Part shown: positions 1,072 through 60,835 of the stretch, piece by piece
How the letters are laid out: every line of letters starts with the position of its first letter
Numbering within the stretch: the first letter of the stretch is position 1
From: Armatimonadota bacterium
Lineage (GTDB): Bacteria; Armatimonadota; UBA5829; DTJY01
Direction: 5' to 3'
Assembly: GCA_029907255.1 (NCBI GenBank)
Contig: JARYMF010000006.1
Coordinates: 70,426-134,425, forward strand
DNA: 64,000 nt
Notes under the pieces: model-generated
Databases searched by the model: none
Seen by the model: the letters and a program-made list of their open reading frames with translations, nothing else
Told to the model about the DNA's origin: nothing
Translations under genes and position numbers: made by a program

Positions 1072-2370
1072 CTAACTCCCATCAATCTTTTCGTCGGTTT
1101 TCGATTCATCTGCCTGAATGCCAAACAGCTCTCGCAAAAAACTGAGCCTATCTGAGGAATCTTCAGACTCAGCACATTGTTTGATACAAGTCAATGGCTG
1201 GTGCATAACTTTGCGCACTATTGACCGTGCCGCCACTACAATTGCATTCCATTCGTCTTCGGAAAGATGCTCAAGTTTTCTTCTGAGCTTTTTCATTTCC
1301 CCATCGCAGATTTCCTCATATTTCTTTTGAAGATCAGTAATAATCGGCACTACATCACGCATGCGAAACCAGCGCATGAATTCGTCTACTTGTTCGGCAA
1401 TCAACGCCTCAACCTTGGCAATCTCTGCTCGGCGGGCTACCTCTCCAACTTCAAGAACTTTTTGGAGGTCGTCTATGTCGTAAGCAAAAACGTTATCAAT
1501 CAAGCCAACTGTTTGCTCAATGTCTCTTGGGACAGCTATATCAATAAAGAAGATTGGGCGGCCGCGCCTTGCACGCATTACAGAGAGAACTAGATTCTGA
1601 GAAATAATGGGCTCAGGCGCGCCGGTGGAAGTAATTACTATATCGGCTTTCACAAGTGCGGTTTGAAGGTTATCAAACCTTACGGCTTGGCCGTTGAATT
1701 CCGAAGCAAGATGTTCGGCTTTCTCATGGGTGCGGTTTGCCACCAAAACAGATTTAACACCGCATGAAACAAGATGGGTAATTGCCAGCTCAGCCATCTT
1801 GCCCGCACCGATGACTAGAACCGTTCGTTCGGAAAGCTCCTCGAATATCGAGCGTGCAAGTTGAACTGCAACCGAGCCAATGGAGAACGCTCCGCGTGCA
1901 ATTTCGGTTTCTGTCCTCGCCCTCTTGCCGACTGTAATCGCTTGCTGGAAAAGGGTGTTCAACACTGGCCCGCTTGCGCCATGCTTAGAAGCAATAGCGT
2001 ATGCAGTTTTTACCTGGCCGAGAATCTGTTGCTCGCCGATAACCATCGAATCAACCCCCGATGCAACGCGAAACAAGTGGGCAGCGGCTTTATGGCCGCG
2101 GTGAACATAGAGTTTCGGCGTGAGTTCCTCGTTTAAGAGACCACTAATTCTGCTTAAAAATGTCTTGATGGAAGTATCGGCATCGGGGGCAGACGCGCAA
2201 ACGTAAACCTCAGTACGATTGCATGTGGAAAGAATGGCGCACTCGGAAATTGCAGTTGAATCTTTTAAATTGGCAAGTACGGTCGGAAGCTGTTGCTCTG
2301 AAACAAACAGTTTTTCCCGCAGCTCAATCGGCGCAATCTTGTGGCTCAGGCCGACGACCATTAGATGCAC
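1072..2370 (-). CDS. hemA: glutamyl-tRNA reductase
   Basis: 432 aa. N-terminal MVVGLSHKIAPIELREK and the CNRTEVY active-site Cys motif are present, along with an NADPH-binding GxGxxA region and a C-terminal dimerisation helix. Confidence 0.9.
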   Translation of the reverse strand: MHLMVVGLSHKIAPIELREKLFVSEQQLPTVLANLKDSTAISECAILSTCNRTEVYVCASAPDADTSIKTFLSRISGLLNEELTPKLYVHRGHKAAAHLFRVASGVDSMVIGEQQILGQVKTAYAIASKHGASGPVLNTLFQQAITVGKRARTETEIARGAFSIGSVAVQLARSIFEELSERTVLVIGAGKMAELAITHLVSCGVKSVLVANRTHEKAEHLASEFNGQAVRFDNLQTALVKADIVITSTGAPEPIISQNLVLSVMRARRGRPIFFIDIAVPRDIEQTVGLIDNVFAYDIDDLQKVLEVGEVARRAEIAKVEALIAEQVDEFMRWFRMRDVVPIITDLQKKYEEICDGEMKKLRRKLEHLSEDEWNAIVVAARSIVRKVMHQPLTCIKQCAESEDSSDRLSFLRELFGIQADESKTDEKIDGS

Positions 2371-2984
2371 TTTATCGCAACCTCCAATGCTTCTTCCGAC
2401 CTACCTTCGGCGAGAAGTGTTAGCACATTTGAATTGATTATCCGTTCGTAAGCAGAATTTCTGTCGCGCTGGTTTGAGTATTTCGCCTTAACCTTCTCAC
2501 GAATAGCGCCAAGCAGGTCGGCAAGCATGCCAAACTCCGGTCCAAACTCAGCTTCTAATTTCTCTCTGATATGCTTAGCAAGAGCCGGACTTTTCCCCGA
2601 AGTTGATACGCTTATTATGAGGTCGCCTCTTTTAACGGCTGCCGGCACAAAAAAATTGCAAAGTGCAGGTGTGTCTACTATGTTCACCAGAATGCCAAGA
2701 CGTTCGGCTTCTTCTGCGACTGCCTCGTTTACATGACGTTCGTTTGTGGCTGCAATTACTAAGAAAGCGCCCTTCAGGCTACCTGGCTGGTACTCTGCGG
2801 AAACATGCTCTATCTTTCCCTGCTCGGCGAGTTGTTTAAGGGCGGGGGTTAACTCTGGAGCAATAACTACAACGCGACCACCGAATTCAAGCAGAGACAT
2901 GACCTTACGCTCGGCGACTGTCCCGCCGCCAACAACTATGCATTTTTTGTTCTGTAGGTCAAGGTTGATAGGATAGTACGCCAT
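2361..2984 (-). CDS. precorrin-2 dehydrogenase / sirohydrochlorin ferrochelatase (SirC / CysG N-domain-like)
   Basis: 207 aa with an N-terminal Rossmann motif VVGGGTVAERKV typical of siroheme synthase N-terminal domains. It overlaps the hemA start by 10 nt. Confidence 0.7.
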   Translation of the reverse strand: MAYYPINLDLQNKKCIVVGGGTVAERKVMSLLEFGGRVVVIAPELTPALKQLAEQGKIEHVSAEYQPGSLKGAFLVIAATNERHVNEAVAEEAERLGILVNIVDTPALCNFFVPAAVKRGDLIISVSTSGKSPALAKHIREKLEAEFGPEFGMLADLLGAIREKVKAKYSNQRDRNSAYERIINSNVLTLLAEGRSEEALEVAIKCI

Positions 2985-56854: not shown

Positions 56855-57823
56855 TTAAATACGCTCCAGCTCCACTTCCTCCGCAAGCCTATAGATATCT
56901 TCACGAGAGCAAAAGCCCGCCCCGTAAGTCATCGCATTTGCCGCACCAGCTGCAGTTCCCAGCCGCAAAGCTTCTTCCGGCGCCGCACCCTGGCTAAGAG
57001 CGTAGACTACTGCCGCCGCTAAAGCATCGCCGGACCCAACTGCGCTGACAAAATTAATTTCTGGCGATTTTGCACGCCAAACAACATCATCTGTGGCGAT
57101 TAGCGCTCCATCGCGTCCGAAGGTCACAATCATCATTTCAATACCCTGCCTAACGAATTCGCATGCGGCATCTGCTGCTTCTTCAATCGTGCCAAGTTGG
57201 CGCCCAACAATTGCGGACAACTCGTGGATATTAGGTTTTGCCATGAACGGGAGCGCCTTGAATCCTTCTGCAAGCGGAGCACCATTGCCATCGAGAACGC
57301 AGCGCACATCGTACTGGCGAGCAATCTCAATCATATCCCGATAAATCGAATCCGGCACGCCCGGAGGAGTGCTGCCGGAAAGCACAGCAAACTCCATTCC
57401 AGGAACAAGGCTTTCAAACTTAAGCTTGAGCCTCTCAACCTCATCGGCGGTTATATTTGGGCCTATCTCATTCAATTCGGTTTGTGTCCGATTGACGGGG
57501 TCGAGAATTGCTATGCAAACGCGCGACTCCTCTTTGGTGCGCACAAAATCTGCCTTCAGCCCTTCAGCCCGCAAAGCTTCTAGGATGAATTCCCCGTTGT
57601 GGCCGCCAACAAAGCCAGTTGCAATCGCCTCGCCACCAAGCTCCTTGTAAACCCGTGCTACATTTATGCCCTTACCGCCGGCTACGATTCGCCATTCGCT
57701 GGGTCGGTGAACACGGTCTATTGAGAAATTCTCAACTGTATATGTCTTATCAACTGCAGTGTTTGGTGTAACAGTAAGAATCACAGAGAGCCATTCTCCA
57801 AAATAGGTGAAAATAATTGACAA
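56855..57823 (-). CDS. 1-phosphofructokinase / tagatose-6-phosphate kinase-type PfkB sugar kinase
   Basis: TPNTAVDKTY...GGKGINVA N-terminus and C-terminal GSGDALAAAVVYAL. Confidence 0.75.
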   Translation of the reverse strand: MSIIFTYFGEWLSVILTVTPNTAVDKTYTVENFSIDRVHRPSEWRIVAGGKGINVARVYKELGGEAIATGFVGGHNGEFILEALRAEGLKADFVRTKEESRVCIAILDPVNRTQTELNEIGPNITADEVERLKLKFESLVPGMEFAVLSGSTPPGVPDSIYRDMIEIARQYDVRCVLDGNGAPLAEGFKALPFMAKPNIHELSAIVGRQLGTIEEAADAACEFVRQGIEMMIVTFGRDGALIATDDVVWRAKSPEINFVSAVGSGDALAAAVVYALSQGAAPEEALRLGTAAGAANAMTYGAGFCSREDIYRLAEEVELERI

Positions 57824-57854
57824 GGATGCTGCAAACTGTTATACTTTACTTGCC

Positions 57855-57941
57855 TGCCGAAGTGGCGGAATGGCAGACGCGCATGGTTCAGGACCATGTG
57901 CCCGCAAGGGCGTGCGAGTTCAACTCTCGCCTTCGGCACCA
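57855..57941 (+). tRNA. tRNA-Leu (anticodon CAG)
   Basis: GCCGAAGTGGCGGAATGGCAGACGCGCATGGTTCAGGACCATGTGCCCGCAAGGGCGTGCGAGTTCAACTCTCGCCTTCGGCACCA, with anticodon loop TTCAGGA. Confidence 0.85.
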
Positions 57942-58052
57942 GCTACGTCAAGGCGCAGGGTGGTATCCCTGTGCCTTTTATTTTTCAACCCCATTGTAAA
58001 CCTCCAATCTCGAAAAGTCAAGGTTACAAGCAAATTGCACTTTTGTAATGCT

Positions 58053-58081
58053 TGACAACAAGCATTAATGTGGGTATACTC
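58053..58081 (+). promoter_or_regulatory. sigma-70 promoter TTGACA-17-TATACT with an approximately 190 nt leader
   Basis: Read directly upstream of the MgtE-N/CBS gene. The leader has no ORF. Confidence 0.4.
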
Positions 58082-58278
58082 TCTACGGTTAAAATTGGTA
58101 ATAAATGTTTTTTGAGGTGATGGTTGGTGGAAGCCGACCCTGCCAATAGTAATATATACTGCCGCCGAGCGCGCGGCAAAAGGAGGGGGATAGCCTAGAC
58201 TCTTAGATTTCCTAACCCTCGCTTCTTCTTTCTCCTCTCTCGCGTTCGGCCGGCATCATAACGTTTAAGGAGGGTACC

Positions 58279-59565
58279 ATGCAGTTCCTTACGCAGGTGC
58301 TTGGTCGGACAGTATTCGACAGCGTTGGTGAACCGATTGGGAAGGCCCGTGACGTTATAGTCACGCCTGCCGAACCATTGCCAATAGTCTCTGCTTTAGT
58401 CGTCGGAAACGGTGAGGAAAAAATCATCCCCTGGCGACTTGTTCGTGAAGAGGTAGACCGCATCAGCCTGGTGGTGCGCAAGGATAGAATCACCGAATAC
58501 ACTCCCCGTGAAGGCGACATCTGGCTCAGGAAAGAAGTTCTCGACCGCCAAATTGTTGATGTTCACGACTATAAAGTAGTACGCGTGAACGACGTGCGTT
58601 TTATTGAAACTCCAGGCCAAGTACGCCTACTAGGGGTAGATGCATCCACTCGCGGGCTTCTCCGCGAGCTTGGCATCGAATGGCTAGCAAACCTGTTCTA
58701 TGCATTGTTCAAGCGCCAAGTGCCCGAGAAAATCATTGCTTGGGATGATGTTGAAACCCTCGAGCGAGCCACTGGGCCCATCAAACTCAAAATACCGCTT
58801 GAGAAGCTTTCCAAACTGCATCCATCAGACATCGCCGACATCATTGAGCAAATGAACCCTGCTCAGCGCGCCGACGTTATTGAGAGTCTCGACGTCGAGA
58901 CAGCAGCTGACGTTCTCCCTGAAGCGAGTCCCGAAATCCAGGCCGAAATTATTGAGGACATCGACCCCGAACGGGCTTCCGACATTCTTGAGGAGATGGA
59001 CCCAGACGAAGCCGCCGACATTTTAGGCGACTTACCTGAGGATCGCTCTGAGGAACTTCTCCGTGAGATGGAGCCAACGGAAGCAGAAGATGTTCGGGAG
59101 CTACTCAGCTATGGGGATGAAACAGCTGGCGGACTGATGACAACTGACTATGTCGCTATTTCAAGCTCAATGACAGCCCAGCAGACAATTGACTACCTGC
59201 GAGAACTCAAGCCCGATGCAGAAACTATCTACTATCTTTATGTGGTCAACGAAGAAAATAAGCTTGTGGGAGTAATCTCGCTTAGAGATCTTATAGTAGC
59301 CGAGCCAGACACACCAATCGGTAAATTTATGATTACAAGGGTAATCCACGTTCATCCCGAAGCAAGTCTTAGGGAAGCAGCAGAGCTTTTCCAAAAGTAC
59401 AACCTCCTTGCGCTACCGGTTGTAGACTATGATAACGAGCTAAAAGGCATTATAACGGTTGACGATATGTTGGAGCACATACCGGCACACGCATGGCATG
59501 GCCGGCCGGGCCGCAGGCAGACTGCTCCCGAACAGCGGCTACAACATGAAGAGGTAGAAACGTAA
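58279..59565 (+). CDS. cytosolic MgtE-N + tandem CBS domain protein lacking the MgtE transmembrane pore (N-terminal PRC-barrel-like region)
   Basis: 428 aa with the acidic helical MgtE-N repeats (DIADIIEQMNPAQRADVIESLD...DILEEMDPDEAADILGDL) followed by two CBS motifs. There are no TM helices. Confidence 0.7.
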   Translation: MQFLTQVLGRTVFDSVGEPIGKARDVIVTPAEPLPIVSALVVGNGEEKIIPWRLVREEVDRISLVVRKDRITEYTPREGDIWLRKEVLDRQIVDVHDYKVVRVNDVRFIETPGQVRLLGVDASTRGLLRELGIEWLANLFYALFKRQVPEKIIAWDDVETLERATGPIKLKIPLEKLSKLHPSDIADIIEQMNPAQRADVIESLDVETAADVLPEASPEIQAEIIEDIDPERASDILEEMDPDEAADILGDLPEDRSEELLREMEPTEAEDVRELLSYGDETAGGLMTTDYVAISSSMTAQQTIDYLRELKPDAETIYYLYVVNEENKLVGVISLRDLIVAEPDTPIGKFMITRVIHVHPEASLREAAELFQKYNLLALPVVDYDNELKGIITVDDMLEHIPAHAWHGRPGRRQTAPEQRLQHEEVET

Positions 59566-59581
59566 CTTACGGAGACGCCTG

Positions 59582-60835
59582 ATGCGAAACAAACTGAGCA
59601 GGCATAGATTGGCTCCAATATTAGCGGCTATTGGCCCAGGCATCATTGCAGCTAACGCAGACAACGATGCGGGCGGCATTACAACCTACAGCCTGGCCGG
59701 GGCACATTTCGGCTACAGCCTAATTTGGGTGCTCATCCTTATAACCTTTAGCCTAGGTGTTACTCAGGAGATGGGCGCTCGCATGGGCATGGTGACTGGA
59801 AAAGGCTTTGGGGGTCTAATACGCGAAAAATTCGGGGCGCGCTGGGCTGCCTTTGCCATACTTATTATGCTTCTCGCCAATATAGGAACTACTACCGCTG
59901 AATTTTCAGGCATTGCTAGCAGTCTCGAAATTTTTGGCATAAGCAAATATATCAGCATCCCGCTTTCGGTAATTGGCGTGTTCATGCTTGTTGCGCGCTA
60001 TGACTATCGGCGTGTGCAAAGGGTCTTTCTAATCATTAGCATGCTTTATCTTTCATACGTTGCATCAGGATTTCTTGCTCGTCCTAACTGGAACGAGGCC
60101 CTAGTGAGCATAGTAAAGCCAGATATACAGTGGAACTTACCTTATCTAATAATGTTTGTTGGTGTAGTCGGAACTACAATCACACCTTGGGGGCAGTTTT
60201 TTATCCAATCTTACGTTGTAGACAAGCGTCTACGTGCCAAAGATCTTCCTTATGCGAGAGCCGATGTTTACGTCGGGGCATTCTTTACAGACTTCATAGC
60301 GTTTTTCATAATTGTGGCATGTGCGGCAAAGATCTACCCATTGGTAATGCAAGGCTTCAAAATTGAAGATGCTGCCGATGTCGCACTTGCGCTCCAACCA
60401 CTCGCTGGACGCTTTGCTTCCATTTTATTCGGCATAGGACTTCTGAATGCCTCGCTATTAGGTGCGGTAATTCTTCCGCTTACAAGCTCCTATGCTACGG
60501 CAGAAACCTTTGGCTGGGAAGCAGGACTTGACAAGACGCCGCGCGAAGCTCCGATATTCTTTGGCCTTTTCCTTTTCTTTCTGCTCATTCCAAGCCTAAT
60601 TGTTCTGATTCCCGGGCTACCGTTGCTACATTTTATGTTCTATCCTCAGGTTTTAAATGGCATCCTTCTGCCAATAATACTCATATTCGTCCTTAAGATT
60701 ACAAACGACCAATTCTTCATGGGGGAATACACCAACTCGCGGGCGTTTAACATCATCGCACTTATCACTACTATAGGGCTAATCATCCTAACGATACTTC
60801 TTCTTGCAACCCCCCTAATACAAAGATATGCTTGA
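59582..60835 (+). CDS. NRAMP-family divalent metal-ion transporter
   Basis: 417 aa with about 11 TM segments. The TM1 signature is GPGIIAANADNDAGG and TM6 has MGARMGMVTG-type motifs. It starts 16 nt after the previous gene. Confidence 0.85.
   Translation: MRNKLSRHRLAPILAAIGPGIIAANADNDAGGITTYSLAGAHFGYSLIWVLILITFSLGVTQEMGARMGMVTGKGFGGLIREKFGARWAAFAILIMLLANIGTTTAEFSGIASSLEIFGISKYISIPLSVIGVFMLVARYDYRRVQRVFLIISMLYLSYVASGFLARPNWNEALVSIVKPDIQWNLPYLIMFVGVVGTTITPWGQFFIQSYVVDKRLRAKDLPYARADVYVGAFFTDFIAFFIIVACAAKIYPLVMQGFKIEDAADVALALQPLAGRFASILFGIGLLNASLLGAVILPLTSSYATAETFGWEAGLDKTPREAPIFFGLFLFFLLIPSLIVLIPGLPLLHFMFYPQVLNGILLPIILIFVLKITNDQFFMGEYTNSRAFNIIALITTIGLIILTILLLATPLIQRYA

Follow-up and report, generated by a model that had tools for sequence, protein, structure and literature searches.

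A detached MgtE-type sensor module and an NRMT-clade NRAMP in an Armatimonadota operon with a candidate leader-peptide attenuator

Transporters of the NRAMP-related Mg2+ transporter (NRMT) clade are uncoupled Mg2+ importers without a known regulator, and the role of their conserved MgtE-like partner has been an open question since 2014. Here, we ask what that partner is, and what controls its expression, at one locus of an Armatimonadota bacterium, in a 64,000-nucleotide (nt) stretch of contig JARYMF010000006.1 (assembly GCA_029907255.1, positions 70,426 to 134,425; hereafter, the window). The locus is a two-gene operon in which a detached MgtE-type cytosolic module, called the sensor protein below, precedes an NRMT-type NRAMP; the two genes are 16 nt apart, and each has its own Shine-Dalgarno site. 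A first-pass annotation of the window, made from its letters alone, had already described a pore-less protein of MgtE N and tandem CBS domains followed by an NRAMP, and both open reading frames (ORFs) are where it placed them. It had also suggested that the untranslated leader of the operon might be a metal-responsive riboswitch, with a weak resemblance to the M-box. The explanation toward which we lean is a different one, namely that the NRMT and its detached sensor are expressed from behind a leader that works as a ribosome-dependent attenuator and not as a riboswitch.

At E ≤ 10, an Rfam scan of positions 57700..58400 matched no family besides tRNA, and RF00380, the M-box (ykoK), was not found. 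The positive control was a plasmid operon of Alicyclobacillus fastidiosus (NZ_CP104068.1, L101), where a 145-bit M-box with a terminator (1880..2048) lies directly before a homologous sensor gene of PRC-MgtE_N-CBS architecture. The M-box there occupies the same position as the leader studied here, but the window leader matches neither the covariance model nor the Alicyclobacillus M-box sequence. Motifs that recall an M-box by eye (GGUGA, GCCAAU) were set aside, the local alignment to the Alicyclobacillus element scoring 14, whereas shuffles averaged 15.9. In 20 distant relatives, scans at the gathering cut-off gave no M-box. Two of these relatives, on metagenome contigs, have a c-di-GMP-I riboswitch (84 and 80 bits) 250 to 400 nt 5' of the homologous operon (L027 225..309 and L028 2670..2754), with no sizeable plus-strand ORF between riboswitch and operon. 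Three different leaders precede the same operon in different lineages: the element of the window, an M-box, and a c-di-GMP-I riboswitch.

The leader of the window is a conserved regulatory leader, but it is not an M-box or any other Rfam riboswitch. Its core of about 140 nt (58112..58252; nhmmer E values from 1e-14 to 1e-34 among close relatives) is found upstream of the sensor gene in every relative of at least 69% identity except L011, and it is absent from the group at 45 to 57% identity. In L011 (73% identity; 2400..2466), there is no leader and a TTGACA promoter lies about 35 to 60 nt before the sensor gene. A degenerate 35-nt leader pattern had six matches in 596 Gb of genomes. Four fall in contigs named Armatimonadota and a fifth in an uncultured bacterium with the same leader sequence as L008; of these five contigs, four have downstream DNA, and in each of them the sensor gene follows the motif. 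The sixth, in a Thermodesulfovibrionales metagenome-assembled genome (MAG; L083 1196..1435), stands alone among the copies found in lying neither on an Armatimonadota-like contig nor in an NRMT operon. It is placed ahead of a gene for an OprB-family porin, beside genes for an HMA-domain protein and an ABC-3 (Zn/Mn-type) transporter, and has its own long-range pairing and a 34-codon frame that starts with GUG and reads V-D-D-G-P-A-N-S….

What the leader appears to contain is a short coding sequence. Among 22 distinct leaders, the frame that begins at an invariant GUG is open in every one, and it has 23 to 24 codons in 18, with a GUG-to-stop distance of 69 or 72 nt; length differences are multiples of three. 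The stop codon is UAG in 18 leaders, UGA in three, and UAA in one. The Shine-Dalgarno site GAGGUGAU lies 9 nt before the GUG and 6 nt before an in-frame UUG at 58124, an alternative start, and is an 8-nt match to the anti-Shine-Dalgarno sequence if, as we assume, the 16S rRNA 3' end is the canonical one. In codons 2 to 7, positions 1 and 2 are almost fixed and position 3 varies in all, mostly synonymously (Pro, U14/G6/A1/C1; Ala-6, C9/U11/A2; Asn, U16/C6; Asp-4, C19/U3). The predicted peptide of the window is M-E-A-D-P-A-N-S-N-I-Y-C-R-R-A-R-G-K-R-R-G-I-A. Its consensus, M-[ED]-x-[DG]-P-[AG]-N-S followed by four to five variable residues, usually a Cys, and G-x-[GR]-R-x-x before the stop, was confined to these leaders in a six-frame translation of the window and of loci L001-L100. 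Two other frames were rejected: an AUG at 58120, opening a frame of 8 to 9 codons, abuts the Shine-Dalgarno site and is AUA or AUU in three leaders, and the third reading frame has no conserved length. We consider it probable that the leader ORF is real, and the leader looks conserved in the way expected of a small ORF that is translated and tied to alternative RNA pairing, rather than in the way of an aptamer that binds a ligand.

This bears directly on the alternative that the open frame is incidental and that the leader, left untranslated, binds a ligand as a riboswitch, be it a divergent M-box or one of a new class. The nucleotide sequence is indeed very well conserved, with hairpins and alternative pairings, and M-boxes are found before homologous operons. 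Nevertheless, the conserved 5' block, which we had tried to read as an aptamer, has variable columns that turned out to be third codon positions; the GUG-to-stop distance is nearly constant, and a perfect Shine-Dalgarno site stands at initiation distance. RNAalifold, applied to a MAFFT alignment of the leaders, gave a single short hairpin, which shows no compensatory changes, and a helix in which one pair is compensatory. Together with the empty Rfam scan and an alignment to a real M-box that falls under the shuffle mean, these results make a riboswitch improbable. Another alternative accepts translation but takes the product to be a functional protein of 23 residues, which might, for instance, modulate the transporter or the sensor protein, and not a sensor of its own translation. 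The small proteins MgtR and MgtS regulate Mg2+ transporters in enterobacteria, which is a general precedent, and both the N-terminal octapeptide and the C-terminal G-x-[GR]-R motif are conserved. Yet the peptide is hydrophilic, its middle varies in sequence and length, and the stretch that encodes it also serves as an arm of a conserved hairpin, opposite a C-rich tract, as in leader peptides; we regard this alternative as very unlikely.

The leader ORF overlaps predicted structures that exclude each other. In general, the ORF from about nt 25 to its end can pair with the stretch 16 to 70 nt past its stop, forming a long hairpin. In the window, this duplex has a predicted energy of −42.5 kcal/mol (z = −2.2 against dinucleotide shuffles). 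Energies lie between −33 and −53 kcal/mol in 21 of the 22 leaders (−19.7 in L084), and the z score against the same kind of shuffle averages −1.87 and is negative in 20 of 22. Strand X of the 5' arm, CUGCCGCCGAGCGCG, is alternatively predicted to form a local hairpin with 58170..58179 inside the ORF. The arms differ in sequence among leaders yet stay complementary, covarying between leaders: the 5' segment GAGCGCG faces the 3' segment CGCGUUC in the window, GACGG faces CCGUUC in L003, GCGGG faces CCCGC in L004, GACAGG faces CCUGUU in L007, CCAGGG faces CCCUGG in L091, and GCUUGCUGGA faces UCCAGCAAGC in L083. Folding of the leader as a whole was not significant (z = −1.2).

Downstream of the leader ORF lies a C-rich, G-poor tract (C 0.34 and G 0.13 in the window). 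In all 22 leaders, the 70 nt past the stop have C at 0.29 to 0.50 and G at 0.04 to 0.21, compared with about 0.25 to 0.31 each in the surrounding DNA. The leader stop and the main ATG are 80 nt apart in the window, and this spacing reaches 622 nt in other leaders. When the window leader was folded with the ORF free, or with only its start covered, the Shine-Dalgarno site of the sensor gene was predicted to be unpaired; when the whole ORF arm was held single-stranded, the C-rich tract paired with that site. Some spacers between leader element and sensor gene have features of their own. In L004 (2490..2900), the spacer is lengthened to 622 nt by a tandem duplication of about 240 nt that resembles an inserted repeat element. 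The spacers of L009 (about 1590..1690) and L095 (about 2330..2490) hold a very stable hairpin made of long inverted repeats with units of the AAATTCGAA type.

The transporter gives a full-length Pfam Nramp match (E = 1e-86) and, compared with solved NRAMPs, scores 363 bits against EleNRMT of Eggerthella lenta (7qia; E = 1.4e-107 over 400 residues) and at most 84 bits against any other (next best E = 7e-23). Members of the NRMT clade are defined by having DxxG on helix 1 and TxxA/T on helix 6, where classical NRAMPs have DPGN and AxxM, and by lacking the proton-pathway histidines (Ramanadane et al. 2022, eLife). Here, helix 1 reads D29-A-G-G32, identical to EleNRMT and part of the site ANADNDAGG (residues 24 to 32) that the first-pass annotation had quoted. 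Helix 6 reads T198-T-I-T201, aligned with T224-T-I-A227 of EleNRMT; the Thr at the Thr224 position is kept, and the fourth position differs (Thr here, Ala there), both being allowed by the clade motif. The helix-6b histidine positions are W203 and I208 (Trp and Asn in EleNRMT), and EleNRMT E133 and Q379 are retained as E107 and Q356. From related loci, we collected 60 distinct partner NRAMPs, of which 55 to 56 could be scored per site; the NRMT signature is retained by every scoreable one (DAGG in 53, TTITPW in 51, TTIAPW in 5). By its sequence, then, the transporter belongs to the NRMT clade and not to MntH, one of the two placements that had been considered from the window alone. EleNRMT is a proton-uncoupled importer of Mg2+ and Mn2+ (Ramanadane et al. 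2022), and by likeness to it, ours is a putative Mg2+-type NRAMP. That paper is silent on operons and genomic context, and MgtE appears in it only as a further Mg2+ channel. In L092 (3809..5080), the NRMT gene is called in two pieces (44 and 360 amino acids [aa]) instead of the one of 423 aa in near-identical L091, a split that comes either from an assembly error or from a frameshift or nonsense variant.

The sensor protein matches Pfam MgtE_N at aa 180 to 280 (E = 7e-31) and two CBS domains (E = 7e-27), with the cytosolic domain of the Thermus thermophilus MgtE channel (TtMgtE; 2yvy) as its best solved relative (E = 2.6e-46); an Armatimonadota MAG encodes a protein that is 100% identical. Because a Pfam scan found no MgtE transmembrane domain (PF01769) and the protein stops 27 residues past the second CBS domain, in a tail predicted to be disordered, it is not a channel. 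Its plug helix is truncated after D396-I401. The NCBIfam mgtE model, TIGR00400, was matched over profile positions 25 to 251 of 450, with a score of 209, below the cut-off of 232.75. The first-pass description as the MgtE cytosolic part was right for the N and CBS domains but overlooked the roughly 170 residues that precede them. These comprise a PRC barrel (PF05239; 28.2 bits against a gathering cut-off of 21.2) and a second beta-rich domain without a Pfam family, a scan of aa 70 to 175 having given no match. The AlphaFold model (pLDDT 78.8) shows a beta barrel at residues 1 to 84, the second beta-rich domain at about 92 to 155, the helical N domain at 174 to 277, the CBS pair at 286 to 400, and a disordered tail at 401 to 428. 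With the whole model as query, Foldseek returned MgtE cytosolic domains as top matches and otherwise only CBS matches, none of them for the N-terminal domains.

We next consider whether the detached module could still sense Mg2+, using TtMgtE numbering taken from the 2yvy alignment, with the register verified at I28, I84, I168, and I190. The protein shares the N domain and CBS pair of TtMgtE (2YVY, 2ZY9), along with acidic ligands of sites Mg4, Mg6, and Mg7: D91 and D247 of Mg4 correspond to D243 and D396, and D95 of Mg6 to D247, all invariant in 32 homologues, and E59 of Mg7 is replaced by another acidic residue, D211. Site Mg5 is half lost (D226 and D250 correspond to N375 and E399). Among the ATP contacts, Y170, R187, and D188 are retained as Y319, R336, and D337. 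Lacking the end of the plug helix and the five-helix pore of TtMgtE, the sensor protein cannot form sites Mg1 to Mg3.

Relatives of the sensor protein place it within a broader family. An exhaustive HMMER search returned 1,520 representatives at E ≤ 1e-30, and the best 150, examined by length, are mostly 400 to 450 aa long, with 23 of 585 to 656 aa that we take, by their length, as fusions to an MgtE pore. We scanned eight long relatives, four of which carry PF01769 behind the same PRC-N-CBS module; since the same module is fused to these pores, the free-standing protein represents the complete cytosolic module of a PRC-bearing MgtE subfamily. In the other four, P0164, P0242, P0246, and P0250 (620 to 750 aa), the module is followed by an unassigned C-terminal region that the Pfam MgtE model misses; it is hydrophobic in the three sequences inspected (P0164, P0242, and P0250) and may be a divergent pore. 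No fusion of the module to Nramp occurs among the best 150 representatives, the long ones having MgtE-type or unassigned membrane regions.

The co-occurrence of such MgtE-N/CBS-only proteins with an NRAMP, raised by the first-pass annotation, extends well beyond the window. An NRMT gene lies directly downstream at nine of nine assessable metagenome loci of at least 69% identity, at all loci of eight further close relatives, and at all three countable genome-scan loci (L082, L084, and L087; L085 and L086 were excluded because their downstream DNA is cut off). At 45 to 57% identity, it does so at 40 of 59 assessable metagenome loci, with 10 further loci that could not be judged. Genes flanking the pair differ from locus to locus. 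Plasmids of A. fastidiosus and Rhodococcus qingshengii have a “CBS domain-containing protein” (414 or 447 aa), in both cases PRC-MgtE_N-CBS, directly before an “Nramp family divalent metal transporter,” so that the pairing is confirmed in Armatimonadota, Bacillota, and Actinomycetota. The A. fastidiosus pair may be mobile, since it is plasmid borne and flanked by recombinase and transposase genes. Homologues of 45 to 54% identity without a directly downstream NRMT are L021, L029, L034, L036, L037, L039, L042, L046, L047, L049, L051, L060-L063, L065, L067, L068, and L080. Outside that list, L081 has an NRMT 1.4 kb downstream of the sensor homologue, and L071, with too little downstream DNA to assess, has one upstream on the opposite strand.

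The gene pair itself is not new and belongs to a kind published by Shin et al. 2014 (PLoS Genet), who reported that most NrmT genes adjoin a gene for the cytoplasmic part of MgtE and offered feedback regulation by this MgtE-like fragment as speculation. As here, an MgtE N-terminal cytoplasmic gene lies immediately 5' of an NrmT-branch transporter gene in one operon (the Clostridium acetobutylicum CA_C0685 region and ACP2976-ACP2977 of A. capsulatum). Our operon has no M-box, an element that is frequent although not universal in the family; their partner was called a small protein, without the terms CBS or soluble domain, whereas the partner here, in Alicyclobacillus, and in Rhodococcus has 414 to 447 aa with a PRC barrel in front. 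In the literature searched, later NRMT papers did not take up the pairing with an MgtE fragment, and no paper combined MgtE, PRC barrel, and CBS. Two features appear to be undescribed in that literature: a partner that contains a PRC barrel and is akin to MgtE channels with the same domain, and a candidate leader-peptide attenuator in place of an M-box.

How might these parts work together? A link of these operons to Mg2+ comes from the Alicyclobacillus homologue, which has a true M-box in the corresponding place; the Mg2+ response of our leader, the involvement of Rho, and the gating of the NRMT by the sensor protein are what we infer. When Mg2+ is ample, ribosomes would translate the leader ORF through to its UAG, unwinding the 5' arm of the long hairpin and freeing the C-rich 3' arm, which would mask the Shine-Dalgarno site of the first gene in short-spacer leaders and/or load Rho in long-spacer leaders, turning the operon off. 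When Mg2+ is scarce, translation would abort or stall in the acidic, proline-containing N-terminus of the peptide, the hairpin would form and sequester the C-rich tract, and the operon would be on. With the acidic sites bridging its N and CBS domains, the sensor protein would read the cytosolic Mg2+ level, and it would restrain the uncoupled NRMT when Mg2+ suffices. We rate such gating in trans as slightly short of an even chance, and Mg2+ sensing by the leader ORF as a tentative proposal.

The model for the leader comes from mgtL-mgtA and corL-corA of Salmonella and Escherichia coli. MgtL starts with MEPDPT, and its EPDP motif makes the ribosome unstable so that translation aborts, to a greater extent at low Mg2+, which switches mgtA on; the mgtA and corA leaders combine a small ORF with two exclusive structures, pyrimidine-rich Rho-loading (rut) sites, and Rho. 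The leader described here likewise has a predicted short ORF before the gene of a putative Mg2+ transporter, set within predicted mutually exclusive stem-loops and followed by a pyrimidine-rich tract, and its predicted peptide begins M-E-A-D-P, sharing M-E-x-D-P with MgtL. The phylum and the transporter family are different, and the frame of 23 to 24 codons has one proline, compared with 17 codons and four prolines in MgtL.

Several findings weigh against the attenuator and trans-gating explanation. The 22 leaders come from one Armatimonadota clade and one outlier and hence are not independent. The match to MgtL is five residues long, could be due to chance, and is too short to establish homology; these two points, the narrow taxonomic base of the leader family and the brevity of the MgtL resemblance, are among its main weaknesses. 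DE/P-rich segments have been defined as having four D/E/P residues among the six after Met, and 21 of the 22 leader peptides have three (L100 has four). Duplex z scores are modest, and purine/pyrimidine composition by itself accounts for part of the pairing. Only for the leader of the window does folding clearly predict control of the Shine-Dalgarno site, the outcome being ambiguous in L002, L003, and leaders with spacers of 130 to 620 nt. On the protein side, two ATP-contacting residues of TtMgtE, N203 and F227, are substituted (I352 and L376), and 19 distant sensor homologues have no NRMT directly downstream despite at least 1.3 kb of DNA. Finally, Shin et al. 2014 saw no improvement in rescue when the A. 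capsulatum MgtE fragment and NrmT were co-expressed, and they judged that NrmT, which has no M-box, to be mainly a Mn2+ carrier.

These last results suit two rival readings of the operon. One is that the PRC-MgtE_N-CBS protein is merely co-expressed with the NRMT, as a buffer of Mg2+ or nucleotides, a chaperone, or a regulator of some other target, and does not gate it. The 19 of 59 assessable distant homologues without an NRMT, the co-expression result, and the missing Nramp fusion among the best 150 representatives all fit. Gene order and short spacing, however, are kept across three phyla while flanking genes differ, the identical module is covalently joined to a Mg2+ pore in relatives, and an uncoupled Mg2+ importer should need a brake, so that we find this reading rather unlikely, if a serious contender. 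The other is that the operon serves uptake of Mn2+ rather than Mg2+, with sensor and leader responding to Mn2+ or another signal. EleNRMT also carries Mn2+, and to the verdict on A. capsulatum NrmT can be added the c-di-GMP-I riboswitch before the operon in two relatives and the outlying leader copy ahead of a porin beside a Zn/Mn-type ABC transporter. Against this, T198 is the counterpart of EleNRMT Thr224, which is needed specifically for Mg2+, the Mg2+-site residues of MgtE are retained, and an M-box stands before a close homologue of the operon. A Mn2+ operon thus seems unlikely.

A trans-acting Mg2+ sensor is a reasonable hypothesis that was already published (Shin et al. 2014). It becomes concrete and testable here because the partner is a complete cytosolic module with intact Mg2+ ligands bridging the N and CBS domains. 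More speculatively, and with considerable doubt, the leader ORF might follow the MgtL principle, in which the sensor is the Mg2+ dependence of the ribosome itself during translation of an acidic, proline-containing N-terminus, and might have come to it independently or by very old kinship. It would then stand before another transporter family in a phylum that branches deeply, and an M-box or a c-di-GMP riboswitch could take its place before the same operon. PRC-MgtE_N-CBS might also be a detachable Mg2+ gate for two unrelated pores, that of MgtE in cis and the NRMT in trans. To our knowledge, ribosome-based Mg2+ sensing by a leader peptide is documented only in enterobacteria; an Armatimonadota look-alike, if true, would suggest that it is a general strategy. 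For annotation, the case cautions that a conserved, riboswitch-like leader may be a small ORF.

Table 1. Positions of the features discussed, in window coordinates
Feature	Position	Strand	Basis or remark
tRNA-Leu(CAG) gene	57856..57941		Own promoter TTGACA/TATACT, 57817..57845; intrinsic terminator 57950..57977 and T run
Operon promoter, sigma-70 type, TTGACA-17-TATACT	58052..58080	+	11/12 in consensus scan
5' leader, about 192 nt	58087..58278	+	Start inferred from −10 box
Leader-ORF Shine-Dalgarno site, GAGGUGAU	58114..58121	+	Nearly invariant in 22 distinct leaders
Leader ORF (predicted)	58127..58198	+	GUG, 22 further sense codons, UAG; comparative coding signature
5' arm of long hairpin	58159..58195	+	Inside leader ORF; includes strand X (CUGCCGCCGAGCGCG) and purine-rich AGGAGG; RNAfold, duplexfold
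C-rich, G-poor tract	58199..58268	+	Candidate anti-Shine-Dalgarno element or Rho-loading (rut) site
3' arm of long hairpin (…UCUCCUCUCUCGCGUUCGGCCGGCAU)	58220..58256	+	Duplex with 58159..58195
Sensor-gene Shine-Dalgarno site, AAGGAGGG	58268..58275	+	Sequence
Sensor-protein gene	58279..59565	+	428 aa; soluble PRC-MgtE_N-CBS protein
PRC barrel	58285..58482	+	aa 3-68; Pfam PF05239, E = 2e-6
Second beta-rich domain	about 58552..58743	+	AlphaFold model
MgtE N domain	58816..59118	+	Pfam
CBS pair	59134..59481	+	Pfam
Transporter gene	59582..60835	+	417 aa; NRMT-clade NRAMP
Helix 1 motif D29-A-G-G32	59666..59677	+	Agrees with DxxG
Helix 6 motif T198-T-I-T201	60173..60184	+	Agrees with TxxA/T; aligned to EleNRMT T224-T-I-A227

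The operon is a separate transcription unit, because the upstream tRNA-Leu(CAG) gene has its own promoter and a terminator that ends at 57977. The promoter and the leader of about 190 nt that the first-pass annotation had proposed hold up (Table 1). The same promoter hexamers, separated by unrelated spacers, lie 5' of the leader in L002-L005, L007, L010, L012, L089, and L095.

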